A stretch of 32,917 nt of DNA, from positions 151,380 through 184,296 of the forward strand of contig CP064989.1 of the NCBI GenBank assembly GCA_016699875.1. The letters are read 5' to 3'. The translations under genes and the position numbers were made by a program. How positions within the stretch are numbered: position 1 is the stretch's first letter; each line of letters begins with the position of its first letter. Below the pieces are notes generated by a model. The model ran no database searches. It was not told the DNA's origin and saw nothing but the letters and a program-made list of their open reading frames with translations. Source of the DNA: Candidatus Moraniibacteriota bacterium (lineage in GTDB: Bacteria > Patescibacteriota > Minisyncoccia > Moranbacterales > UBA1568). This document shows positions 15,462-27,332 of the stretch, one piece after another.

Positions 15462-16715
15462 TTATTCCCCGCGTATCGCCCGAATCGGATCTATCTTTGA
15501 CGCCTTCCACGCCGGATACGTCCCAAAGACTATTCCCGACAGAAAAGCAAACGCCACCGCAAACAGAACATTGTATATCGAAAACACAAAGGCAATCGAA
15601 AATCCAAGTGCTGCAATCGCCGAGAAAGCGAAGAAAATAATCACAAACGAAAGTGCGATCCCGATCGTCCCGCCGACAATCGCCACCAGAATCGCCTCCA
15701 CCAAAAACTGCCGCAAGATATCCCGCGGCCGCGCGCCCACCGCCTTGCGAAGCCCGATCTCCGGCGTCCGTTCGGCAACTGACACGAACATCACATTCAT
15801 AATGCCCACTCCGCCCACAACGAGCGAGATAGACGCGAGCGCCACCAAAAGAATTTGCACCGCACCAAAGACCGACTGCACCAAGGTCTGCGCCTCTTTG
15901 ATGGTCGTCACGGCATAGTCCTCTTGCCCGGCTTTGCGAATATCGTGCCGATCACGCAAGAGATCATATATCTCTCGCGCTGTCTCGTCGACGCGAGAGC
16001 CATCCCGTGCCGCCACTGTGAAGAAGCTCACGTAGTCGACACCGAGGATTTTCTTCTGCATGGTACGCAGAGGAATATACGCGAAATCATCGAAATTGAC
16101 AAACCCCGTCGAGCCGCGCTCTTTGATCACGCCCGCAACGCGATAACGCTGCCCTTTGATCGTAATCGACTGCCCCAACGCACTGCTCTCTCCGAAAAAC
16201 GTTTTCTTGATACCGGCGCCAAGCACTACTGTCTGCGCAATGCCTCGATCGTCGGCATTCGTATAGAAGCTCCCTTCGGTCAGAACAATATTCCGATCAA
16301 TTTGCGGCGCACCCGCCGTCGCTCCGAGAAGAAATATCTGTTTGTTTGTCTCATCCCGACTCGCGAGCGCCTGCCCAACGATGCCTGCATAGTACCCCGA
16401 GACATTCGGCAAGCGCGCAACCGCATCCGCATCGTCGAGCGTGAGCGTCGTCACTTGTATACCCTGCGCGATTCCCGTCGCATTCCCGGACGAATTCCGC
16501 CCTGCCGACGGCACCTTCACCTCGACCTGAATGCTATTGTCCCCGAAGCTCTTCACCTGATCGAGCACGAATCCCTCGACCGCATCCCCCGCCGACGCGA
16601 CTGTCATGATGGCGACTGTCCCGATGATAATTCCCGAGAGCGTGAGCAATGTCCTCCCGGCATTCGCCGCAAGACTCTTCACCGCAAAAGACAACGAAAG
16701 AAGCAGTTCGTGCAT
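15462..16715 (-). CDS. ABC transporter permease, MacB/FtsX family (copy 1)
   Basis: N-terminal TM, a large periplasmic MacB_PCD-like domain and a C-terminal FtsX domain (SISLVVGGVGIMNVMFVSVAERTPEIGLRKAVGARPRDILRQFLVEA). ATG 16715 (MHELLLSL) is preferred over TTG 16769. Confidence 0.9.
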   Translation of the reverse strand: MHELLLSLSFAVKSLAANAGRTLLTLSGIIIGTVAIMTVASAGDAVEGFVLDQVKSFGDNSIQVEVKVPSAGRNSSGNATGIAQGIQVTTLTLDDADAVARLPNVSGYYAGIVGQALASRDETNKQIFLLGATAGAPQIDRNIVLTEGSFYTNADDRGIAQTVVLGAGIKKTFFGESSALGQSITIKGQRYRVAGVIKERGSTGFVNFDDFAYIPLRTMQKKILGVDYVSFFTVAARDGSRVDETAREIYDLLRDRHDIRKAGQEDYAVTTIKEAQTLVQSVFGAVQILLVALASISLVVGGVGIMNVMFVSVAERTPEIGLRKAVGARPRDILRQFLVEAILVAIVGGTIGIALSFVIIFFAFSAIAALGFSIAFVFSIYNVLFAVAFAFLSGIVFGTYPAWKASKIDPIRAIRGE

Positions 16716-16881
16716 CCCGAAAAAAAACCCGTTACACTTCTTCACCTTATCACAAAGAAGACTCCACAAGAAGCGTTTTTTAGTATAAAACCAGAAGAAA
16801 AAGTGACTCTCTCACCCCCCCCTTCCTTTTTGCTCGCCTGCTTTGGCTTCGCCCCCAAAACTTTTCGGCGGGACGGCGGCT

Positions 16882-16903
16882 AATTTAGCTTCAATTTAGC
16901 TTC
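16882..16903. repeat. Tandem 11-bp direct repeat at the left composition boundary
   Basis: aatttagcttc occurs at 16882-16892 and again at 16893-16903. Confidence 0.8.
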
Positions 16904-17167
16904 ATCTGCTGTTTTATCTCTCTCAAATATGCTGTTGATTTCTGTTTCAATATATCGATATTAATACTTGTGTTTTTTTCAAAATTTTCAAAATCTTGAA
17001 AATCATCTCCTAAATTGTTTCTCTTAAAATAACTCAAAAAAAACCAAATTAATGACTAAATTATCCATAGCAACAATTGCCCCAAGTACGACAAACAAGC
17101 AAAAATAAGGGTTTTATTTGTGGAATTTTTTCTTCTGCAATATGAAGTAATTTTTTAAGTCCATATT

Positions 17168-17830
17168 TTATTTCTTATTCAAACGCTTTGCCTTTTGCGG
17201 AATTACATAAACAGTTTTGATGAGGTTTTCAACAATATCCATTGCGATATCAAGCTCCTCATCACTTGCGGCGATTGTTTCGTGTGCCGAATTATTGCCT
17301 AGCAGTCTTGTGCTGTGTAAGGTTTCTGCGCTGTCTTGAGTTAGTACGCCCTTGGTAACCAAATCATCAATCTTGTTTTCCAAATTGGCACCTCGTGCTT
17401 CTTTTTCTCTGCACACAGATTCAACCAAAGCTCTTATCCCTATTCCAGCAAGAATACCTAGCCGACCACATAAAGCCCCATGAGTTTCTTTATAAATTTT
17501 CAAAACCCCATCTGGCAGCAAATACATGTCTTTAACTTGTTTTCTGCCAGCAATTCTGCTTGGATATAGTTTTATATCCTCATCATAATAAACTTCGCCA
17601 GTTTCTGGGTCATAGCTCATATCTTCAGAACAAGAAGAAGTTGTGCGGAAAGAAACCTCTTTGCAACCCTGACAAATAATTATTTCGTAATAACGCGAAA
17701 CGGAAATTTCGTCTTCTGATTCCAAGACATTCACGGAAAATAAAACTTTATGACAAGTCTCGCCGTCGCACTTTATGCAAGCGAGATCGTATTCTTCGTC
17801 TTTGGTTTTATCATACTCAATCTTGCGCAT
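17168..17830 (-). CDS. Zinc-ribbon plus DUF4145 domain protein (220 aa)
   Basis: N-terminal four-Cys ribbon (CIKCDGETCH ... CQGCKEVSF). The C-terminal helical domain matches the DUF4145 pattern as I remember it (IRALVESVCRE...KIDDLVTKGVL...LHSTRLLGNNSAHE...DIAMDIVENLIKTVY). ATG 17830 lies 2 nt after the hsdM-hsdS stop (17833). Confidence 0.8.
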   Translation of the reverse strand: MRKIEYDKTKDEEYDLACIKCDGETCHKVLFSVNVLESEDEISVSRYYEIIICQGCKEVSFRTTSSCSEDMSYDPETGEVYYDEDIKLYPSRIAGRKQVKDMYLLPDGVLKIYKETHGALCGRLGILAGIGIRALVESVCREKEARGANLENKIDDLVTKGVLTQDSAETLHSTRLLGNNSAHETIAASDEELDIAMDIVENLIKTVYVIPQKAKRLNKK

Positions 17831-17832
17831 AT

Positions 17833-20325
17833 CTATAAAATATCGTTAATCAACTGGGATATTTTTTTCTCAAAAATATCAATCGTTTTTGCTGAAGCCG
17901 ACACACACTCTTTTTCTTTTGAAATTTCATCAACAATTTCTTTTTGAACTTCAATCGGTGGAAGCGGCACAGTTATTGTCGCAAAATTTTTCTGGTATAT
18001 GGCGGCAACGCTCGTTGTTCCACTCACCAAAGTTTTTATTTTTTGTTTGCCTTCCTCTGTATTGAGATAGTAGTTAACATAATCAGGATCAGTTTCTTTT
18101 CTGAATCTAATCCTTAAAATATTGTTGTTGAACAAATATTTTCCGTCTTCGCCGTGATAAACAGTAGATTTACCGACCAAATTCGGGGCGTTTCTTGTGT
18201 TGTAAATAAAATCGCCGTCGCTTAGAATGTATTTTTCTAATTCTTCTTTACTAGCCTCCACATGAGCAACGGAATCCAACTCTAGATTTCCGTCTATTGT
18301 GATGTTATCCATTTTTATATATGGATATGGAAAAACATCCGCTTGCATTGATTTATCTTTAACTAACCCAAGCTTTGTGTCCAAAAATAAATTGCCTAAT
18401 TCGATAATTTGCCAAGACGGATCAACCTTGATTGTTGGTTTATAATTACTGATAATTTGTTTTGCGCTGTCAATAATATGTTGATATTTTTCAATCTGCT
18501 CAACAATTTCTTTTTGAACTTCAATCGGCGGGAGTGGAAAAATAAATAATTCTTTAAGTTTTGATGGCCTTACTTCTTTGATCGTAACCCCTGTTGCTAA
18601 AGATTGGATATACTCTTTTTTGTTTTCTAAAATACGGGCTAGAAATTCAGGTAAAATTTTATTTTTATCAACAACAATCCCAGACAATCCTTGCTTTGTT
18701 GCTGTAGGAACTTTTGCAATTCCAACATTGCCAATAGTTGCACCCAAAGAAATAATTATTGATCCGACAGGCCAAACTTTAGCAGAACTATTTTCCAGCC
18801 CAAGTTTGGTTAATTTTTCCGTAGTGTCAAAAATTTCTGATTTAATATCTTTCACAACACACCAACAAATATCCCCGCCAAAATATTCTGGTTTTCTTCT
18901 AGACGGAGTGCCTCCATCTTTCATGTCAATCACAGTATCACCAAGTTTTACAAGAGGCCATTTTACATTAGAATAACTAAGCACAGTTTTATATCTCTCT
19001 CCCGAAAGATTATAATCTCCCGCCGCAATTATTTTTTCTTTGGAAACAATATGAGCGATTTGCTTTTCGTCTTCGCTAAATTTTTTATCGTCTAAAGACG
19101 ATTTGTATTTCTTGATAACTTCCAATGCCAAAGGCAAATCGTTTTTATTATGTTCCCGCCTTTGCGCGCCTAAATCAAAACCGTCATTTTGAATTTTTAC
19201 AAACAAAAAGTTTTTTGTTTTCTTTGAAATCTCATTATCAAAAAGTAAGATACTGGTTTTTACTCCCGCATAGGGATTAAATACACCGGCAGGAAGCGAA
19301 ACGACAGAAAAAAGCCCATCCTCAATTAATTTTTTACGCAACTGCGTATAAGCATTATTTGATTGAAAAATTATTCCTTCGGGAACGATTATTCCAGCCC
19401 GTCCTTTTATTGTTAAATGCTCAACGATATAATCCACAAAAAGCACTTCCGCGCGATTCGCCTGAATAGAAAATCTTTTGTGGGGAACAATTCCGCCTTT
19501 TGGTGTCATAAATGGCGGATTTGCCATTATTACATCAAATGTTTCGTCCCATCTTTTTTCGCTTGAAAGTGTGTCATATTCATGGATTTTTGGTTCTGGG
19601 AATCCATGTAGATACATATTCACAAGTGCCAATTTCACCATATCGGGCGAAATATCATAGCCCGACAAATTATTCATCAATTTCAATTTTTCATCTGGCG
19701 TGAGTGGTTTTTCTTTGTTGGTTTTCAAAATGTGCTTGTAGGCAGAAATCAAAAATCCGGCCGTCCCGCAAGCGGGATCAAGGATTGTTTCATTTTTCTT
19801 CGGATCAACCACTTCAACGATAAAATCAATGATGTGACGAGGCGTGCGGAATTGCCCCGCATCGCCTTGGCTTCCGAGAATGGAAAGCAGGTATTCAAAA
19901 GCATTGCCTAAATTTTCGCTATGTTCGTAATTAAATTCGTTGATCTCTTTGAGGAACAGCGAAAGTGTACGCGAGTCGTTGTATGGCAAAAATGCACCTT
20001 TGAAAATATCACGGAACAATTGCGGAATATGCGGATTTTTCGACATATTCGTAATTGCCTGAACATACAGATCGAGGCGTTCTTGTCCCGAAAGCCTGTT
20101 ATCCAAGAGTTTCGTCCAAGCGTATTGCGAAAATCCGTTGGCGAAAAATTTTGCCTCTCCGCCAAGTTCTTCCGATTCCTTGTCCATATCGTCCATAAAC
20201 TTATAGACGAGAGCGGTTGTGATTTGCTCAACTTGCGCCTTGGGGTCTGGCACTTTGCCGACAAGGATTTGCCTCGCAGAGTCAAGTTTTCTTTTTGTAA
20301 CTTGATCAAGCATATCAATATTCAA
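17833..20325 (-). CDS. hsdM: Type I restriction-modification methyltransferase fused to the specificity subunit (HsdM-HsdS fusion, 830 aa)
   Basis: N6-adenine MTase motifs: GQFRTPRHII, motif I DPACGTAGFL, motif IV VIMANPPF. These are followed by two target-recognition domains, each ending in a conserved helix (FPLPPIEVQKEIVEQIEKY and VPLPPIEVQKEIVDEISKE). The start is either TTG 20325 (11-nt overlap with the upstream ORF) or ATG 20313 (1-nt spacer). Confidence 0.93.
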   Translation of the reverse strand: MNIDMLDQVTKRKLDSARQILVGKVPDPKAQVEQITTALVYKFMDDMDKESEELGGEAKFFANGFSQYAWTKLLDNRLSGQERLDLYVQAITNMSKNPHIPQLFRDIFKGAFLPYNDSRTLSLFLKEINEFNYEHSENLGNAFEYLLSILGSQGDAGQFRTPRHIIDFIVEVVDPKKNETILDPACGTAGFLISAYKHILKTNKEKPLTPDEKLKLMNNLSGYDISPDMVKLALVNMYLHGFPEPKIHEYDTLSSEKRWDETFDVIMANPPFMTPKGGIVPHKRFSIQANRAEVLFVDYIVEHLTIKGRAGIIVPEGIIFQSNNAYTQLRKKLIEDGLFSVVSLPAGVFNPYAGVKTSILLFDNEISKKTKNFLFVKIQNDGFDLGAQRREHNKNDLPLALEVIKKYKSSLDDKKFSEDEKQIAHIVSKEKIIAAGDYNLSGERYKTVLSYSNVKWPLVKLGDTVIDMKDGGTPSRRKPEYFGGDICWCVVKDIKSEIFDTTEKLTKLGLENSSAKVWPVGSIIISLGATIGNVGIAKVPTATKQGLSGIVVDKNKILPEFLARILENKKEYIQSLATGVTIKEVRPSKLKELFIFPLPPIEVQKEIVEQIEKYQHIIDSAKQIISNYKPTIKVDPSWQIIELGNLFLDTKLGLVKDKSMQADVFPYPYIKMDNITIDGNLELDSVAHVEASKEELEKYILSDGDFIYNTRNAPNLVGKSTVYHGEDGKYLFNNNILRIRFRKETDPDYVNYYLNTEEGKQKIKTLVSGTTSVAAIYQKNFATITVPLPPIEVQKEIVDEISKEKECVSASAKTIDIFEKKISQLINDIL
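17931..17961. repeat. Copy 1 of the intragenic direct repeat in the hsdS portion
   Basis: caacaatttctttttgaacttcaatcgg (17931-17958) is identical to 18501-18528. Identity resumes after one mismatch. Confidence 0.9.
18501..18531. repeat. Copy 2 of the intragenic direct repeat in the hsdS portion
   Basis: A 28-nt exact copy of 17931-17958, offset by 570 nt (190 codons, in frame). Confidence 0.9.
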
Positions 20326-20743
20326 AGATTATATCTTCGAAATTACAATCCATTTTCTCTGGAAAAATTATCAAAAATGCAAATTTGTAATTGAGATGAC
20401 CTTTATCATTTTTTAGATCTGTTTTTGCATTTTCAATTTCATCAGCTGAATCATTAAATTTTTTTGTTTGAATTATAATCAAATTATCGTTTTGATTACC
20501 TCTAGAATGAATAACTATATCTGGTTTTATTAAATCGTTCTGACTATTTCTCTTGCTTCTTTCTTCAAAACGATTGTATTCACAATCAATATTATAGCCA
20601 GAGAAATGTCCCGAATTTTCTAGATAGTGCGCCAATCTATGTGACAAAGATTGCTCATGAATATCTCGGTTGCAATCGCCGACCATATATCCATTTTCTG
20701 TAACAACTTTTTTTAAAGCTTCCAAAATTATTTCTTTATACAC
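20315..20743 (-). CDS. Uncharacterised 142-aa protein embedded between hsdR and hsdM-hsdS; possible degenerate PD-(D/E)xK fold
   Basis: GTG start at 20743, 4 nt after the hsdR stop (20748). Its stop at 20315 abuts or overlaps the hsdM start. Motif order: helix with E30 (DIHEQSLSHRLAHYLE), NIDCEYNR, IKPDIVIH (P74-D75), LIIIQTKK (Q92-x-K94). Confidence 0.65.
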   Translation of the reverse strand: MYKEIILEALKKVVTENGYMVGDCNRDIHEQSLSHRLAHYLENSGHFSGYNIDCEYNRFEERSKRNSQNDLIKPDIVIHSRGNQNDNLIIIQTKKFNDSADEIENAKTDLKNDKGHLNYKFAFLIIFPEKMDCNFEDIIFEY

Positions 20744-20747
20744 AAAT

Positions 20748-23264
20748 TTATCTCATATATTGATTAACTGATACATAGTCTTTTACATATTCAGGAACAG
20801 TTTCCCGCCAGCCGTTTAATTCCTTAAATTCCGACATTGTAAACCCAGCGTACACATTCAACTCCGCAAATTGCTTTTTGTTGATAATCTCGCGGAATTT
20901 TTCGTCCGCAACATACGCTTTCAGATAATTTTTGATATGCGGAACATATTTGCTTTCGGGCTTGTAGATTGAGATAAATTTTTCGCACTCCTCTTCCAAT
21001 TTTTCATCTTTGGACTTGAAAACATCAATCAAGCCGAAAGCTCTTTCCAAAAATTCCCGCCAAGAAATACGGCGATCAAGATTTTCACTCTTGCGGATTT
21101 TTTCAAGATTTAAGAATAATTGCGGTTTATCTTCGTATTTGTCGCGCATAATTTGCACGGCTTTGTCCCACTGCTCGTTTTCAACGGCTGATTTTACTTC
21201 CGTGTCTTTTTGCAATTCTTCACGGGCTTTTTCAAAAAGTTTGCGATCAACTTTCATCCCCTCGATTCCGACAGGGGTTTCGGTGAGCGTTTTTACTTTA
21301 TCGGGATTGAAAACTTCTATTTCATCAATATCAACGCCGACAGGTCCTTCCCCGCCAGTTCCTTTTTGTTTGATTGGCAGTTGCAAAATTTCGTCATAAT
21401 CAAACTTTTCTTCAAAGTATTCGCAGTTGGCGAAGAAGTCGAAAAATTTGAAATGGTCTTTTGACGCTTTGTGTTTTTCACCGTATTCGTCGGTATATTC
21501 AAAGGTGAATTTTCTCGTGCCTCGTCCTTTGATCTGAATAAAATCAGTCGGTGAAAAGATCGGGCGCATAAGCGCGAGATTCAAAATGTCTTGGCAATCA
21601 TAACCAGTCGTCATCATTCCGACAGTTACACAAACCCTCGTTTTACTTGATTTGTAATTTTCCAAAAACTTGGTGTGTCCGTTTAGATTGTTATTTGCGA
21701 AATTGATTGTGAATTGCTGACTATCCGCAATATTTGAGGTGATTTGCACTGCAAAATCAGAATTGTATTTGTCGGGCCAAAGCTGGCTCGCCATTCGATT
21801 GAGTGTTTGCGTTATTTTGGAAGCATGTTTTTGGCTAACGCAAAATATAATGCTTTTGCCGATTTCACTACTTATCGGGTCCTTGAAAGCGTTTTCAATA
21901 AATGTCTGGCAAAAGACGTGATTGGTTTTTTCGGAAAAGAATTTCTTTTCAAAATCCTTTTGGAAAAATGTTTCTTCGCTCTCTGTGCCATTTTCATCTT
22001 CAACCATAACCGCATAACCCTTTTCCGATAGCAATTCGGTGGTGATGTCGGTTCGCGCGTCTGAAACGATAGGATTGATCAAAAATCCTTCTCGCACACC
22101 GTCAAGCAAGCTGAAACGGAAAGTCGGCTCGCCGTTTTTACAGCCAAAAGTCGTGTAAGTGTCCAAGAGTTGCCGTCTTTCCCAAGCTCGCGGATCTTTT
22201 TGTGAAAGTTTTTGCGGATCAATATTTTTCAAATAATCTCTCGGTGTTGCGGTTAAGCCCAATTTATAACCGATGAAATATTCAAAAACTGCTCGCGAGT
22301 TTCCGCCGATCGCGCGGTGCGATTCATCAGCTATAATCAAATCAAAATCAGTCGGCGAAAAAAGTTTTTTGTATTTATCTTGCGCCGAAAGACTTTGGAC
22401 TGTTGAAATGACAATTTCCGCCTTTTTCCAATCGTCGCGGTTTTGTTTGTAAATAACTGATGAAAAATCATTGCTCAAATAGCGGACAAAATTTTTGTGT
22501 GCCTGATCTTCCAATTCCAAACGATCAACCAAAAACAGAATTCTTTTAGCGTTTCCTGTTCGTAAAAATAGTTTGATAACGGCGGCGGAAATAAGGGTTT
22601 TGCCTGTTCCTGTCGCCATTTCAAAAAGAAAGCGATCATTTCCAGCTTCGGCGGATTTTTGCAAAGCGTGAATTGCTTTCAGCTGATACGGGCGCAAAAT
22701 TCGCAAGTTTTCGTCCCAAAGATATTGTTCGCGGGTTTCTTCTTTCTGATAACGAGGATCATCTTTGAAATTTGGATTTTGCGTAAGGGCGATATAATCA
22801 TCATTGACTTCTTCGTCCGCTAAACGCTGATTGTCGGGCTTGAAGTCCTGTCTGTGTTTCAACGATTCTTGCGTTGGAAATTCCGTGATAATTTCAGGAT
22901 CGCCTCGTTCCAAATCCCAAAAATAATGAAGATTGCCATTTGAGAGAATAACAAAGCGAGCGTTTTCGGTGTGAGCGTATTTTCTCGCTTGTTCTTTTCC
23001 GTCTAACGGATTTTTACCTTCCTTTTTGGCTTCCAAAACAACAAGCGGAAAGCCTGTTTCATCAAACAAAAGGAAATCAACAAAGCCGTTTTTTGTGGAC
23101 TCAAAATCTTCTCCAAAAGCGTCAATGTCTTTCTGTGTAAGCCTTACATTTGATTCAAGTTGGATATTTGCCTGTCCTTTCCCGTCATCAAAAAATCTCC
23201 AGCCCGCCTGCTCAAGCAGTTTGTTTATTTTTATTCGCGCTTTCGCTTCTTTTGAATGATCCAT
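20748..23264 (-). CDS. hsdR: Type I restriction endonuclease subunit R (EcoEI-like, 838 aa)
   Basis: HsdR N-terminal nuclease domain (KARIKINKLLEQAGWRF; VDFLLFDETGFPLVVLEAKKEG gives D...EAK). SF2 helicase motifs (MATGTGKT, DLIIADESHRA, VGMMTTGYDCQDI, QIKGRGTR). The C-terminal helical region resembles the EcoEI R C-terminal domain. ATG 23264 is preceded by GGAGGT (complement of 23268-23273). Confidence 0.93.
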   Translation of the reverse strand: MDHSKEAKARIKINKLLEQAGWRFFDDGKGQANIQLESNVRLTQKDIDAFGEDFESTKNGFVDFLLFDETGFPLVVLEAKKEGKNPLDGKEQARKYAHTENARFVILSNGNLHYFWDLERGDPEIITEFPTQESLKHRQDFKPDNQRLADEEVNDDYIALTQNPNFKDDPRYQKEETREQYLWDENLRILRPYQLKAIHALQKSAEAGNDRFLFEMATGTGKTLISAAVIKLFLRTGNAKRILFLVDRLELEDQAHKNFVRYLSNDFSSVIYKQNRDDWKKAEIVISTVQSLSAQDKYKKLFSPTDFDLIIADESHRAIGGNSRAVFEYFIGYKLGLTATPRDYLKNIDPQKLSQKDPRAWERRQLLDTYTTFGCKNGEPTFRFSLLDGVREGFLINPIVSDARTDITTELLSEKGYAVMVEDENGTESEETFFQKDFEKKFFSEKTNHVFCQTFIENAFKDPISSEIGKSIIFCVSQKHASKITQTLNRMASQLWPDKYNSDFAVQITSNIADSQQFTINFANNNLNGHTKFLENYKSSKTRVCVTVGMMTTGYDCQDILNLALMRPIFSPTDFIQIKGRGTRKFTFEYTDEYGEKHKASKDHFKFFDFFANCEYFEEKFDYDEILQLPIKQKGTGGEGPVGVDIDEIEVFNPDKVKTLTETPVGIEGMKVDRKLFEKAREELQKDTEVKSAVENEQWDKAVQIMRDKYEDKPQLFLNLEKIRKSENLDRRISWREFLERAFGLIDVFKSKDEKLEEECEKFISIYKPESKYVPHIKNYLKAYVADEKFREIINKKQFAELNVYAGFTMSEFKELNGWRETVPEYVKDYVSVNQYMR

Positions 23265-23522
23265 AAGACCTCCTTCATTAAATCAAATATACAGATAAAT
23301 TTCCCAATTCTCTCTTAATCCACCGCAAGGCAACCCAAATTTTATCTTTTTGCCCTTCTCTCACATTCCCCCCATACTACCCCCAACCAATCTCTCTGTA
23401 AAATGTCGAAATTCCTCAAAATAAACAAAAATATCCAGCAAAATCCCCATGAATCCCTTAGAGAAAAACAAAGGTTCTTCGATTTTCGATAGGAAAGAGA
23501 TCAGATATTACATCACCGAACT

Positions 23523-24266
23523 TCAATGTGGCATAAATGGAAAGTGCTTATTAAAATCCGCCAACTCTCTGACATACGACTGCACCAATAATACAGAAAC
23601 CGGCCAATACATCAGGTTGCCCAAGTATTTTGACCATTGTGACTGTATGGGCAAATCCGGAACAATTCGTATATTTCCTTCCTGTATTTCATCTTCACTT
23701 ATATGACCCAACGCAGTCACAAGATAGTTTCTACTTTTCCAATTTGTTCCGATGGAATTATGTACCCCAAGCACCGGAAAACGTTGACCCGCCTTTAACT
23801 TGTGTATTGTTTTAAGTGCAGATGGAATAAACATCTCGTCTCGGATTTGTATCGAGGACATTTGATTATCTTCCAAAAAAACATCAACCTGATTTTTTTG
23901 CTCTGCCGTTGGTCTATCAGGATAAACATCTTTTCTCTCTATAAAAGAACCGCTTCCATCGCTAAAGCCTCTATAAAAACTATCCTTTAGAACCTCCACC
24001 TGCGTCCCTTCCTGCAGAATCGGAAACACCCACGGATTTTTGTAGAGCGTCATGCTTATGGCTATGCACACAGCGATAAAAACGATAGAAAACATCTTGC
24101 GGTATTTCTGACCCGATCGAAACGAGAATATTATGAGAAACGCCATAAACGGCGTCGCCATCCAAAATCCAGTCTCACCAACATTGAACGCTCCACCGAG
24201 CGAGAAGACTGCCGATATAATGACTGCTACCACCGTGACAACTTTGACAAGTCGGGATTTTTCCAT
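23523..24266 (-). CDS. Hypothetical membrane protein (247 aa)
   Basis: ATG at 24266. Three N-terminal TM segments (VVTVVAVIISAVFSLGGAF, FWMATPFMAFLIIFSF, FSIVFIAVCIAISMTLY), a soluble region of about 150 aa, and a hydrophobic C-terminal segment (LMYWPVSVLLVQSYV). No family recognised. Composition is intermediate between the island and the flanks. Confidence 0.6.
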   Translation of the reverse strand: MEKSRLVKVVTVVAVIISAVFSLGGAFNVGETGFWMATPFMAFLIIFSFRSGQKYRKMFSIVFIAVCIAISMTLYKNPWVFPILQEGTQVEVLKDSFYRGFSDGSGSFIERKDVYPDRPTAEQKNQVDVFLEDNQMSSIQIRDEMFIPSALKTIHKLKAGQRFPVLGVHNSIGTNWKSRNYLVTALGHISEDEIQEGNIRIVPDLPIQSQWSKYLGNLMYWPVSVLLVQSYVRELADFNKHFPFMPH

Positions 24267-24316
24267 AAATAAGAAGTGGATTTAACTCAAATGATAAGAC
24301 ATCCTGGAAACGCGAT

Positions 24317-25564
24317 TTACTCATACCGCAGCGCCTCCATCGGGGAGACGCGGGCGGCGCGGCGGGCGGGATAGAGGCCGAAGATAATACCGATAAGAAG
24401 CGAAACAGCAAAGGCGACACCGGCAGCTTGAAAGGTGAGAAGAAATGTCCATTCGTAACCGGCCGCACGTATGCCGAGTGCGGAAAGATAGGTCAACAGG
24501 ACACCGAAGACAAAACCAAAAAACCCGCCGAGAAGCGAAAGAAACACCGCTTCGATAAGAAATTGCACCAAGATATCCGAATCGCGCGCACCCACCGCCT
24601 TGCGAAGCCCCACTTCGCGGATGCGCTGCTTAAGCGCAATCAGCATGATATTCATGATACCGATGCCGCCCACAAAAAGCGATATACTGGCAACGAACGA
24701 AAGAAAATATTTGAGTATATCAGTGATCGATCCCAGTATCGAGATCGCGTCGGCAGTGTTCCGAATTGAGAAATCGTCGGGCGAATCCGTCTTGATACGA
24801 TGCCGATCGCGAAGAAGCGCGCGTATCGTGTCGACCGTATGCGAAATATTTTTCTCGTCATCCACCTTGAGCCGCGCGAAATTAAGATAGTCGATACCAA
24901 GCAATATTTTCTGAGCGGTTTCGAGCGGGATATAGATCGTTGCATCCGTATTCGAAAAACTCGAGCTCCCCTTCGACTCGAGAACACCGACTACCGTAAA
25001 GCTCGTATCTCCCAGAGAGAATCGTCTTCCGATCGGGTCTTCCGTCCCAAACAAATCCGTCGCACGCGTCGCTCCCAAAACCGCAACACGACCGAGTCCG
25101 GATACTTCATCCGCAGAAAAGAACCTGCCATGAGCCAATGGGAGGTTCTCGACCTGAGGAAGCGCCGCGGAGACACCCTGATACGATACGGACAGCGATT
25201 CTCCCTGAAAAGTCGCCGTGGCCGAACCCGTCACATAGCCCGATCCGGCAACAATATGCGGTACACGACTCTTCTGCAAAATCGCATCGAGATCCTTATT
25301 GGTAAAGGTCGTCGTCACGACGCCGAAAACGCTTGCGGGCGGCCCCTTCGGATCGGACGCACCCGGAAGCACCGCGATCAAGTTCGATCCGACACTCCTG
25401 ATCTGGCCCAATATAAAATCCTGCGCCGACGCGCCGATAGACATAACAAGGAAGACCGCGGCGATGCCGATCACCATGCCAAGCACCGTGAGTATCGTAC
25501 GCCCCTTCGCAACGGAAAGATTCCGCAAAGCGACGCGAACAGACTGAAGTATTCTCCGAAACAT
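24317..25564 (-). CDS. ABC transporter permease, MacB/FtsX family (copy 2)
   Basis: Same architecture as 15462-16715 and alignable to it along the whole length (SISLFVGGIGIMNIMLIALKQRIREVGLRKAVGARDSDILVQFLIEA). ATG 25564 (MFRRILQSV) is preferred. The track extension to 25630 overlaps the upstream gene. Confidence 0.9.
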   Translation of the reverse strand: MFRRILQSVRVALRNLSVAKGRTILTVLGMVIGIAAVFLVMSIGASAQDFILGQIRSVGSNLIAVLPGASDPKGPPASVFGVVTTTFTNKDLDAILQKSRVPHIVAGSGYVTGSATATFQGESLSVSYQGVSAALPQVENLPLAHGRFFSADEVSGLGRVAVLGATRATDLFGTEDPIGRRFSLGDTSFTVVGVLESKGSSSFSNTDATIYIPLETAQKILLGIDYLNFARLKVDDEKNISHTVDTIRALLRDRHRIKTDSPDDFSIRNTADAISILGSITDILKYFLSFVASISLFVGGIGIMNIMLIALKQRIREVGLRKAVGARDSDILVQFLIEAVFLSLLGGFFGFVFGVLLTYLSALGIRAAGYEWTFLLTFQAAGVAFAVSLLIGIIFGLYPARRAARVSPMEALRYE

Positions 25565-25586
25565 GCTCTCAGTATAGCACTTCGAT

Positions 25587-27332
25587 CTACCCGAATGTGA
25601 AAGCGTGCACATGAGCAGCGCCCTCCTCAAATTTGAGCCGTAAGAGATGCTGTCCGGGAGAAGAAAGATGAATCAAGTGATAGAGCCGATCACTATCAAC
25701 AGTCACTGTACCACCTTCATTATCACTGCCAAAACTCTGAACTACCCCATCCAGAGAAACATGTACACGAGCAGAAACATCCGCACGCTCCGGCCGCATC
25801 ACCAAAAATACATCTTGCGCATCAAATTCGAACACGAGTTCGGCGCCGGGTGACGGCGTCGCATATTCTTGCCCGACCGTCCACATTCCCGAAAAAGCGA
25901 ATCGACTCAAAGAGAGTGCACTCGGCGCCGTATATATTGCTGGCATATCGATTTGTATCGGCTCCGGCGAGGAGAATCTCTCCATGCGAGCAGAACCCAC
26001 ATAAGTTTCCGGCGTTCTTGCAAAGACCGTATAGGAAGGATTATCCGTCGTTGTCGGCACATCCTGTTCCCCTGCTTCTCGGAGAAGTTCTTGAATGACA
26101 CGCTCACTCCCGTCGTAATCGCCTTCGCCGAAATGGTGATACCGAATATTCCCTTCCGCATCGATAAAATATTTTGCCGGCCAGTAGTGATTGTCATAGA
26201 CTCGCCAGGTCGCAAAGTTGTTATCCTGCACGATCGGATATGTGAGACCAAAGTCAGCAACCGCTTTCCGGACATTGTCGGCGCTTTTCTCGAACTCGAA
26301 TTCCGGCGCATGCACACCGATAATCACCAATCCTTTGTCGGCATATTTTTCATTCCACGCTCGAAGATACGGAAGCGTCCGCTGACAATTGATGCACGAA
26401 TAGGTCCAAAAATCGATAAGCACGACTTTACCGCGAAGAGCTTCGAGTGAGAGCGGCTCGCTATTAATCCAAACGCCTCCAGAAATAATTTCCGGCGCCG
26501 GAACACCCTTTGGCTGCAAATCAAAAAGTGGCTTCCCAGTCATATCCGAACCAGCATCTCCTCCCACCACTTGATCGCCGCGCAGTTTTGACAATTCTCC
26601 TCGAATAAATCCGGTATCTTCAAACGAGGTAAGACCGGAACCATAGTTTGGAAACACCGTAAGCACGAATGTTTGAAATTTCCGGTCCGCCTGCACCAAT
26701 ATGGCAAATGCCGTCACTATCATCACCACACCGAATGCTCGTTGAATCGCCGCACCATGAGACAAAAGCCATGGCACTCGCTGAAGGAGCGCTCGCCCTC
26801 CCCACATCACAAGAAGCATCGGAAACGCCGCACCCGCCGAATACGCCAGAGTGAGAAGAAATGCCGAGAAAGATACAGTGCCCGTTACCGCAAGCGTAAT
26901 CACCGAAGCAAGAATGGGACCCACACACGGCGTCCAAAGCAACCCCAAAGAAACACCGATAAAGAGACCTGGAAGAAATCCGCCTCTGGAAGAAACCGTC
27001 GGAATGAATCGAGTCAACTTTGAGGAAAGTGCCTCAAGCGCAAGCTGTACTCGTGGCACCAGAAGAGAAAACCCAAATCCGGCAATCACAACCACCGAAA
27101 GAAGTCGCAAAGTATCAGCAGACACGCCGATTGCGTTTACAATCGCCGAAAGAAAGAGCGTGAACAGCGTAAAGCTCAAAACAAACCCAACAACAACGCC
27201 TATCGGCCGCGACTTCCCTATTGCAGCATCACCAACACTCGACGACAGAATAATCGGCAACACCGGAAGAATACACGGCGAGAGCACCGTTACGATTCCA
27301 GCCGCAAAAGCGAATAAAACAAGAAGTATCAT
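25587..27332 (-). CDS. DipZ-like fusion: CcdA/DsbD-type thiol-disulfide transporter, TlpA/ResA-like thioredoxin domain and a C-terminal beta-rich domain
   Basis: N-terminal CcdA core (VLSPCILPVLP; LLWTPCVGPIL), a periplasmic thioredoxin fold with CxxC (DFWTYSCINCQRTLP), and a C-terminal domain of about 170 aa. The three-part architecture matches mycobacterial DipZ as I recall it. Confidence 0.88.
   Translation of the reverse strand: MILLVLFAFAAGIVTVLSPCILPVLPIILSSSVGDAAIGKSRPIGVVVGFVLSFTLFTLFLSAIVNAIGVSADTLRLLSVVVIAGFGFSLLVPRVQLALEALSSKLTRFIPTVSSRGGFLPGLFIGVSLGLLWTPCVGPILASVITLAVTGTVSFSAFLLTLAYSAGAAFPMLLVMWGGRALLQRVPWLLSHGAAIQRAFGVVMIVTAFAILVQADRKFQTFVLTVFPNYGSGLTSFEDTGFIRGELSKLRGDQVVGGDAGSDMTGKPLFDLQPKGVPAPEIISGGVWINSEPLSLEALRGKVVLIDFWTYSCINCQRTLPYLRAWNEKYADKGLVIIGVHAPEFEFEKSADNVRKAVADFGLTYPIVQDNNFATWRVYDNHYWPAKYFIDAEGNIRYHHFGEGDYDGSERVIQELLREAGEQDVPTTTDNPSYTVFARTPETYVGSARMERFSSPEPIQIDMPAIYTAPSALSLSRFAFSGMWTVGQEYATPSPGAELVFEFDAQDVFLVMRPERADVSARVHVSLDGVVQSFGSDNEGGTVTVDSDRLYHLIHLSSPGQHLLRLKFEEGAAHVHAFTFG

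Follow-up and report, generated by a model that had tools for sequence, protein, structure and literature searches.

A Type I restriction-modification operon of a Moraniibacteriota bacterium with two accessory positions and a PD-λ-3-A-like gene linked to hsdS

Introduction

Do the two additional genes of a compact Type I restriction-modification (R-M) operon act together with the R-M complex, or do they merely share its operon? This question is raised by a stretch of 32,917 nucleotides (nt) from Candidatus Moraniibacteriota bacterium (assembly GCA_016699875.1, contig CP064989.1, positions 151,380 to 184,296), hereafter the window, in which hsdR, an open reading frame (ORF) of 142 amino acids (aa), a fused hsdM-hsdS gene and a DUF4145 gene are encoded one behind the other. 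In the following, the 142-aa ORF is called p142, the fusion hsdM-S, and p142 and the DUF4145 gene together the passengers; related loci and proteins carry L and P numbers. The original prediction, which was made from the sequence alone, had proposed an undescribed accessory module coupled to R-M. This stands in so far as a link between p142 and hsdS is apparently undescribed, but the locus as a whole is not categorically new, since both passengers fall into known defence families and the principle of embedding has been published. The overall explanation that we favour, with a confidence only a little above even, is a mobile R-M operon that carries an autonomous RAZR-like cargo gene and, in p142, an S-linked guard.

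Results

A fused-MS Type I operon with two passengers

Four packed genes had been described on the minus strand, and the ORF listing and a direct reading of the sequence agree with this; the gaps between them amount to 1-4 nt.

20748..23264, minus strand: hsdR, 838 aa, from the ORF listing
20315..20743, minus strand: p142, 142-aa ORF, GTG start, 4 nt after the hsdR TAA
17833..20313, minus strand: hsdM-S fusion, 826 aa from the ATG at 20313 (or 830 aa from the TTG at 20325)
17168..17830, minus strand: DUF4145 (RAZR-like) gene, 220 aa, ATG 2 nt past the hsdM-S TAG

All four ORFs are real genes and not chance ORFs, because each of them has many conserved homologues. For the junction between p142 and hsdM-S, the original prediction had given the alternatives of an 11-nt overlap and a 1-nt gap. 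Direct reading reveals the p142 TGA, 1 nt and an ATG, with an alternative TTG start 11 nt inside the p142 ORF, and in an alignment with related operons the start at ATG 20313 (ATGCTTGATCAA) is conserved in L018, L004 and L006. From this conserved start we conclude that the two genes lie 1 nt apart and do not overlap.

HsdR combines an N-terminal PD-(D/E)xK nuclease domain (HSDR_N/HSDR_N_2, residues 55-127) with an SF2 motor (ResIII 1.4e-39, Helicase_C), matches the PADLOC model REase_I (6.8e-57) and has EcoAI/FtnUII (type IB-like) as its closest NCBIfam entry, with 244 bits and below the cut-off of 550; its identity is 92% to the HsdR of L018 and 62-85% to those of L026-L036. The hsdM-S product comprises HsdM_N and N6_Mtase (residues ~11-447; 7.2e-55), followed by two Methylase_S domains (~454-826; 1.9e-31) that make up two units of target recognition domain (TRD) and conserved region (CR), and it matches PADLOC MTase_I (1.3e-99) and Specificity_I (7e-52). 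Its M part is 83-89% identical to that of relatives, while the TRD regions diverge. M and S are encoded on one ORF of 826 aa and not as the classical separate polypeptides (M2S1), and this fusion is kept in L004, L006, L018 and L026-L038. By its domain content, the operon is best assigned to the Type I R-M systems as a fused-MS variant, and the domain calls confirm that two non-canonical genes are located inside a compact, co-oriented operon of this type.

p142 is located directly upstream of the S-encoding gene

The genomic context of p142 was analysed in the best 80 of 390 confirmed p142-family loci from a metagenome scan, for which branches of the family were defined with iterative hidden Markov models and Pfam, and a locus was counted as hsd-adjacent if an hsd gene was located within 300 nt. 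The K-type branch (signature EDEDHR[E/Q]K), which takes in both the p142 of the window and component A of the defence system PD-λ-3, is hsd-adjacent in 25/50 loci and in 11/16 of those in which both flanks reach at least 1.5 kb. After de-replication at 90, 70 and 50% identity, hsd-embedded members are still present in 23/47, 14/37 and 7/25 clusters, respectively. By a rough estimate, well below 1% of random genes would directly adjoin an hsd gene. An enrichment of passenger homologues next to hsd genes, which the original prediction had led one to expect, is thus seen for the K-type branch of the p142 family; among the DUF4145 homologues at 42-56% identity, 1/17 is hsd-embedded.

The R-type branch (signature EDDDHRER, ~170 aa) contains no hsd-adjacent locus (0/30), forms one cluster at 70% identity and probably represents a gene that is specific to one lineage and serves another role. 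Several of its loci (among L071, L076, L083, L091, L095-L104 and others) are syntenic with thiamine-pyrophosphate (TPP) enzymes. ORFs of ~515 aa upstream of non-hsd p142 homologues were considered as divergent HsdM proteins and rejected, as they are TPP enzymes. The neighbours of non-hsd members of the p142 family are heterogeneous, and defence genes occur among them only sporadically.

The embedded K-type loci represent at least three operon architectures:

Architecture 1: hsdR-p142-hsdMS
Architecture 2: hsdM (~515-550 aa)-p142-hsdS-...-hsdR (~1,040 aa, HindI-like)
Architecture 3: hsdM (~815 aa)-p142-hsdS-hsdR

In all evaluable loci (29/29), p142 is located immediately 5' of the S-bearing gene, at a spacing of -47 to +10 nt and often with a 4-nt overlap, and it stays 5' of hsdS even in operons that have further cargo (SLFN/AlbA_2-HATPase or YhcG/DUF1016) between hsdM and p142. 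In the protein P0261, a complete p142 domain lies in frame within an HsdS, between TRD1-CR1 and TRD2-CR2, a fusion that may be taken as a Rosetta-stone hint of physical association. The operons of these architectures all keep a canonical HsdR with HSDR_N. That p142 makes up for an absent HsdR nuclease was also considered and rejected, because HsdR has HSDR_N both here and in the hsdM-p142-hsdS operons. A literature search with incomplete coverage returned no paper linking PD-λ-3-A-like proteins to hsdS, and the position-locked link between the two, as it appears from gene order, is possibly new.

The hsdM-p142-hsdS operons often start with a ~222-aa RadC-like JAB gene upstream of hsdM (5 matches; L048, L075, L080, L094, L108) and also carry genes for YgjP-like/SprT-like metallopeptidases (3 matches; L082, L084 and others). 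Further cargo between hsdS and hsdR includes AAA_15/21, AAA_14-DUF4143 and Zeta-toxin-like genes.

p142 is related to PD-λ-3 component A and has a predicted nuclease fold

The systems PD-λ-3 and PD-T7-4, to which the passengers are related, reportedly come from Vassallo 2022. p142 matches the PADLOC model PD-Lambda-3_A (7.6e-12); it has no Pfam or NCBIfam match, none of PADLOC's PDC or HEC candidates matched it, and the sequence profile search gave no meaningful PDB match. The comparator for the true component A was a plasmid-borne 159-aa protein from Enterobacter (L115, NZ_CP043384), which matches the PADLOC model at 2.3e-100 and has no Pfam match. The hhalign comparison of this protein with the p142 family yielded a probability of 100% and an E-value of 4.1e-40, with every motif shared, which supports p142 as a true homologue of PD-λ-3 component A. 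The designation of the passengers as uncharacterised had therefore to be given up, for p142 on account of this homology and for the DUF4145 gene on account of its RAZR/PD-T7-4 architecture.

On the Enterobacter plasmid, the gene after component A encodes component B, which belongs to the HEPN proteins (Hypoth_Ymh). This pair (L115, 5059-8648) has Mrr_cat restriction-endonuclease-domain genes on both sides and a MobF relaxase adjacent to it. PD-λ-3 acts by abortive infection (PMC13190303) and is listed among the PD-(D/E)xK-containing systems (PMC10952713). The window shares component A with it, including all signature motifs, but differs in that p142 is followed by hsdM-S where PD-λ-3 has the HEPN gene, that the identity of p142 to component A is only ~27%, and that Q replaces the E at a catalytic position. 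No PD-Lambda-3_B or Hypoth_Ymh match was found among the operon proteins or in the ORF upstream of hsdR (p247), and because component B is absent, the locus is not a PD-λ-3 system.

The AlphaFold2 model of p142 (pLDDT 91, pTM 0.86) displays the elements H-H-E-E-E-H-E with an α-β-β-β-α-β core. Its Foldseek matches are weak but all of them are PD-(D/E)xK proteins, namely the DrdV nuclease domain (prob 1.0, TM 0.50), 3IJM, Cas4, NucC, EcoRV and Card1, so that p142 is predicted to have a PD-(D/E)xK-like nuclease fold. A constellation of residues is nearly invariant in the family (E30, D53, E55, D75, H79, R81, E92 and K94). The p142 of the window has D75 and K94, and position 92 is Q in its clade; this position is E in 88/93 locus-encoded homologues examined.

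The family comprises 1,983 cluster representatives at E<=1e-3 and >3,000 proteins at E<=1e-5, and has members in both bacteria and archaea that carry no annotation other than hypothetical; relatives on viral contigs are rare (2 loci). Apart from the fusion to HsdS, a p142 module is found after a RusA resolvase domain (P0235) and at the N-terminus of proteins of 337 and 611 aa (P0194, P0189), the remainder of which has no Pfam match.

Sibling operons reveal two accessory positions

In L018 (HsdR 92% identical), L004 and L006, the hsdR TAA is followed by an 11-nt spacer and then by ATGCTTGATCAA, with no p142 between them, and in the nucleotide alignment the p142 ORF of the window replaces exactly this spacer. 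Because near-identical operons have the 11-nt spacer instead of p142, the gene is not needed by the R-M system and appears dispensable for this R-M family. Homologues with 54-63% identity occupy the same slot in L026-29/L038, L031, L032/33 and L034-36, and the nucleotide homology is unbroken across hsdR-p142-hsdM in the sibling operons. The idea that p142 is a one-off recent insertion was ruled out by these homologues (L026-L036, L038). The divergence of p142 (55-63%) does not track that of HsdR (62-85%), a pattern that points to an exchange of cassettes through conserved flanks.

The second slot lies 3' of hsdM-S. In those siblings of which the 3' end is readable (L026-29/L038, L031, L032/33), it never contains DUF4145 but the following genes:

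L026:8320-10772: slot 2 with an Old-like ATPase and a 172-aa ORF
L031:7429-9759: slot 2 with an AAA_13/PDC-S06 protein, weak PrrC match
L032:6327-9014: slot 2 with a Ppl-like protein

Slot 2 is accordingly a swappable cargo site. The comparison of the siblings indicates that accessory genes take up two positions in this R-M family, one in which p142 is optional and one at the 3' end in which the cargo varies, and that the two assort independently.

The DUF4145 gene encodes a RAZR-like zinc-ribbon/HEPN protein

In the product of the DUF4145 gene, an N-terminal zinc ribbon of the Cys4 type (C18, C21, C53, C56) is followed by a DUF4145 HEPN domain at the C-terminus, which contains R175-x7-H183 (codon of H183 at 17282-17284). 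It matches Pfam DUF4145 (1.4e-16) and, over both domains (residues 5-201), the PADLOC model PD-T7-4 (E 1e-8, 32.9 bits); none of the residues C18, C21, C53, C56, R175, N179 and H183 varies among 23 homologues. PD-T7-4 is now called RAZR (ring-activated zinc-finger RNase). It was characterised in 2026 as an abortive-infection system of one gene that combines a Cys4 zinc finger with a DUF4145/HEPN RNase (catalytic residues R146/H154), assembles around phage ring proteins as a 24-mer ring and cleaves single-stranded RNA (PMC13017515). A study of 2013 counted DUF4145 among the HEPN families and also listed zinc-ribbon fusions and an occurrence 'in operon with R-M' (PMC3710099).

The window protein and RAZR have in common the order of Cys4 zinc ribbon, linker and C-terminal DUF4145 HEPN domain, the R-x7-H spacing (R146/H154 in RAZR), a similar length (220 aa here, 211 positions in the PADLOC model) and a clade that is mostly a stand-alone single gene. 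They differ in that the window protein is only distantly related (~33 bits to the PADLOC model), has a longer zinc-ribbon region (~90 aa) and is encoded in a Type I operon, whereas RAZR overlaps an integrase gene. We regard the protein, on the basis of these comparisons, as RAZR-like, i.e. as having the same architecture and probably representing a distant sister clade.

Its AlphaFold2 model (pLDDT 89) has a β-rich N-domain with a β-sheet and a helical C-domain, and in Foldseek the fold of the C-terminal domain matches the HEPN toxins 7AE6, 5YEP and 7BXO, of which 7AE6 is a comparator structure in the RAZR paper (PMC13017515); the sequence profile search gave no meaningful PDB match. Profile and fold searches, which had been suggested for both passengers, thus brought up the HEPN and PD-(D/E)xK folds and the homology to PD-λ-3 A, but no PDB sequence match and none of the RAZR entries.

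In a context set of 22 loci from a scan of species-representative genomes, the five closest loci (81-94% identity; L004-L007, L018) have the DUF4145 gene behind hsdM-S at the same spacing. Among the 17 homologues at 42-56% identity, 16 do not adjoin hsd genes, the sole hsd-embedded one being L017 (hsdM-X-hsdS), and the Pfam-matched neighbours of the non-hsd homologues are mostly housekeeping genes (tRNA synthetases, DnaA, gyrB, ligase). Phage GenBank contained no homologue. This context pattern is as expected of an autonomous single-gene system that is occasionally lodged in hsd operons. A physical association with the R-M complex, which had been thought probable, is not borne out for this gene by these 16/17 homologues and by the unrelated defence genes that occupy its slot in sibling operons.

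Junctions and surroundings of the operon

The AT-rich character of the operon that had been noted holds, in that it lies with one upstream ORF in an island of low GC content.

23269..23274, minus strand: ribosome-binding site AGGAGG, 4 nt before the ATG of hsdR, read from the sequence
23374..23402, minus strand: sigma-70-like promoter candidate TTTACA-17-TAGTAT upstream of hsdR, a lead only
16862..17167, minus strand: AT-rich 3' tail of the module without coding sequence, which in blastn is homologous to the copy in L018
16795-16823: terminator-like 12-bp stem after the AT-rich 3' tail
16800..24300, no strand: low-GC island (GC 0.35-0.42 at ~16.8-24.3 kb vs ~0.50 in the flanks)

A canonical Shine-Dalgarno sequence (AGGAGG) is present in the operon only for hsdR, and the other three genes abut the preceding stop codon, a spacing that is consistent with translational coupling of p142, hsdM-S and the DUF4145 gene. 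The promoter scan was at chance level in the region (20 sites vs 19.0 ± 4.9 expected). In blastn, the window is 85% identical to L018 down to 17046 and 78% identical over 17041-16862. At the other end, the homology between the two begins exactly at the hsdR ATG, the window being unrelated from 23265 onward upstream. Directly upstream of hsdR, within the island, lies the 247-aa ORF p247 (23523-24266, minus strand). Its N-terminal segments are hydrophobic and probably transmembrane, its C-terminal part is soluble, and neither Pfam, NCBIfam nor PADLOC gives a match; a counterpart is absent from the related hsd loci examined. A small HTH_17 gene, which could encode a controller protein, precedes hsdR in several sibling operons (L028/L029:3263-3451, L032:233-502) and is missing from the window.

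Two paralogous MacB_PCD/FtsX permease genes (15462-16769 and 24317-25630, minus strand) bracket the island. These tandem paralogues may mark the site at which the R-M module was inserted, or they could recombine with each other and thereby excise it; no tRNA, integrase, convincing flanking direct or inverted repeats, or Rfam match was found at the island boundaries. That the locus is a horizontally acquired or mobile Type I R-M operon, occurring mainly in Patescibacteria-type genomes, is part of the explanation favoured here and on balance rather probable.

The M-S fusions vary in size, with 815-830 aa and two TRDs here and 610-626 aa in L026-29 and L038, in which the similarity of the S part is confined to the C-terminal conserved region and which probably carry a single TRD. 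A 51-nt direct repeat in the window (84% identical; 17917-17967 and 18487-18537) encodes the repeated 'LPPIEVQKEIV' conserved region and could mediate the loss or exchange of TRDs.

Discussion

Gene identities, homologies, the presence or absence of cassettes, the neighbourhood statistics and the fusion protein are the observations from which our explanation starts. According to the explanation that we favour, the operon would provide three layers of defence. The EcoAI-like HsdR and the fused HsdM-S would perform R-M. The RAZR-like protein in slot 2, as we infer, would act alone as an abortive-infection RNase that is activated by oligomerising on a phage protein, its gene sharing the operon only for co-transfer and co-expression. 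p142, in turn, would be co-translated with HsdS or HsdM-S and bind to it, because the family is locked to the S-encoding gene; we infer that it is a latent DNase or a nuclease-fold sensor that is held in check by the methyltransferase core and is released or activated once phage anti-restriction factors disable the R-M complex. It would then represent a second line of defence in the style of PrrC and Ronin with a different effector, a guard role that is plausible by analogy with these two systems.

Several points weigh against this explanation. The neighbourhood statistics stem from the best 80 of the 390 loci, many of them on short contigs, and about half of the K-type loci have no hsd gene in the available flanks, some lying among metabolic genes. 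Because of these many loci, and because the partner in PD-λ-3 is a HEPN protein, binding to S cannot be universal in the p142 family. The adjacency of p142 and hsdS could reflect a preferred insertion hotspot, the independent shuffling of p142 agrees equally well with a selfish cassette and with functional coupling, and the fusion to HsdS comes from one cluster representative. With Q92 instead of a near-invariant E, the p142 of the window may be catalytically altered or inactive. On the side of the RAZR-like protein, scores against the model of PD-T7-4 lie at only 22-34 bits throughout the clade, the RAZR entries 9Y9C and 9Y6U are absent from the Foldseek matches of its model, and a transfer of the trigger and mechanism of RAZR would be an extrapolation.

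Some of these points would also suit another reading, which is possible and in our view somewhat unlikely, namely that both passengers are self-sufficient defence cargo for which the hsd operon is a favoured landing site or expression platform, and that neither of them touches the R-M complex. Unrelated defence genes are commonly embedded in Type I loci (Payne et al. 2024; TgvAB acts without HsdR), the content of slot 2 is interchangeable, the nearest operons lack p142, the shuffling of p142 alleles is independent of HsdR, some homologues of p142 stand alone or have a HEPN partner, and the RAZR-like clade is mostly stand-alone. However, generic cargo varies in its position (after hsdM, or between hsdS and hsdR), whereas p142 stands 5' of the S gene in 29/29 loci and keeps this position across at least three operon architectures, often overlaps the hsdS start by 4 nt, and is once fused into HsdS. 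A further reading, which we put forward tentatively and consider rather doubtful, is that K-type PD-λ-3-A proteins are an unrecognised HsdS-docked nuclease module, a widespread 'fourth subunit' of Type I systems that, as a DNase counterpart of PrrC or RonA, guards against anti-restriction, or that adds nucleolysis, and that would have been re-partnered with a HEPN RNase in PD-λ-3.

The translational coupling of p142 to the S gene, the conserved constellation of catalytic type, the HsdS fusion and the similarity of the fold to R-M nuclease domains such as DrdV could be expected of an auxiliary subunit of the restriction enzyme, that is, of an HsdS-recruited nuclease or DNA-end-processing module that alters Type I cutting and is not a suicide effector. 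We consider this unlikely, as we do its possible forms such as cutting close to the recognition site or the breakdown of translocated loops, since the HsdR in all these operons already has an intact nuclease domain, near-identical operons without p142 are maintained, the homologous PD-λ-3 A works in an abortive-infection system without R-M genes, and the p142 of the window has Q at the catalytic E position. Still less probable is a split PD-λ-3-like pair, in which p142 as the PD-(D/E)xK protein and the DUF4145 protein as the HEPN RNase would be separated by hsdM-S. It is true that PD-λ-3 consists of an A-family protein followed by a HEPN (Ymh) protein and that the window operon encodes an A-family and a HEPN protein, but hsdR-hsdMS-RAZR-like occurs without p142 in L018 and L004, with the same R/MS junction and gene order in the L006 fragment, and hsdR-p142-hsdMS occurs with an Old-like, AAA_13 or Ppl-like gene instead of HEPN in L026, L031 and L032. 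Moreover, the HEPN families differ (DUF4145 vs Hypoth_Ymh), and the hsdM-p142-hsdS operons have no recurrent HEPN partner.

Precedent for cargo genes in hsd loci, which the original prediction had invoked, is established (PrrC, TgvAB, Ronin, Payne et al. 2024). EcoprrI restrains PrrC until T4 Stp releases it (PMC12707154). The favoured explanation resembles PrrC/EcoprrI and RloC in that an accessory gene is located inside the hsd operon and a latent effector is proposed to be released by phage anti-restriction, and slot 2 of the sibling operon L031 even holds the AAA_13 protein with a weak PrrC match. In contrast, neither passenger of the window has an ABC-ATPase (AAA_13/PrrC) or anticodon-nuclease domain, in line with the earlier statement that neither is PrrC- or RloC-like (no AAA_13 or PrrC match in either), and p142 has a predicted fold of DNase type, not an RNase fold.

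In Ronin, HsdMS keeps the membrane toxin RonA (61 aa) in check until Ocr or ArdA triggers it (bioRxiv 10.1101/2023.04.06.535777). Both cases involve a small gene that is tightly linked to hsdS/hsdM, and RonA is proposed to be sequestered by HsdMS and released by Ocr/ArdA. Unlike p142, which is a soluble 142-aa α/β protein according to its AlphaFold2 model, RonA is an unrelated membrane protein, for which reason p142 was rejected as a RonA, and Ronin is usually found without hsdR, whereas p142 operons keep a complete HsdR. TgvAB and the rlo genes of Campylobacter jejuni are further Type I-embedded genes, TgvAB acting without HsdR (PMC11411939), and the 'guilt-by-embedding' study of Payne et al. 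2024 systematically listed 3,231 families that are found inside BREX, DISARM and Type I systems (bioRxiv 10.1101/2024.01.29.577857). In such cases (TgvAB in V. cholerae VPI-2, C. jejuni rlo, Payne et al. 2024), defence genes lie between hsd genes, and slot 2 behaves like a cargo site of this kind; p142 differs from generic cargo by its fixed position relative to hsdS, and is not among the PADLOC PDC/HEC candidates.

Type I R-M systems rank among the commonest defences of bacteria, and their inactivation by DNA-mimic proteins is routine in phages. To our knowledge, only few guardian modules that punish the inhibition of R-M are known (PrrC, PARIS, Ronin and some retrons). In ultra-small Patescibacteria-type genomes, R-M, a RAZR-like RNase and a third module would be stacked in one translationally coupled operon of ~6 kb, which offers a compact and experimentally tractable example of layered immunity. 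If the passengers are autonomous, the locus would be an ordinary instance of the published 'guilt-by-embedding' pattern. The linkage of p142 to hsdS is a specific, testable and apparently undescribed regularity, and p142-type proteins are found across several Type I architectures in bacteria of many environments. If PD-λ-3-A-like proteins are HsdS-docked effectors, they would constitute a widespread new class of guardians or accessory proteins, and the docking would explain the role of one PD-λ-3 component and provide a mechanistic handle on an uncharacterised abortive-infection system.

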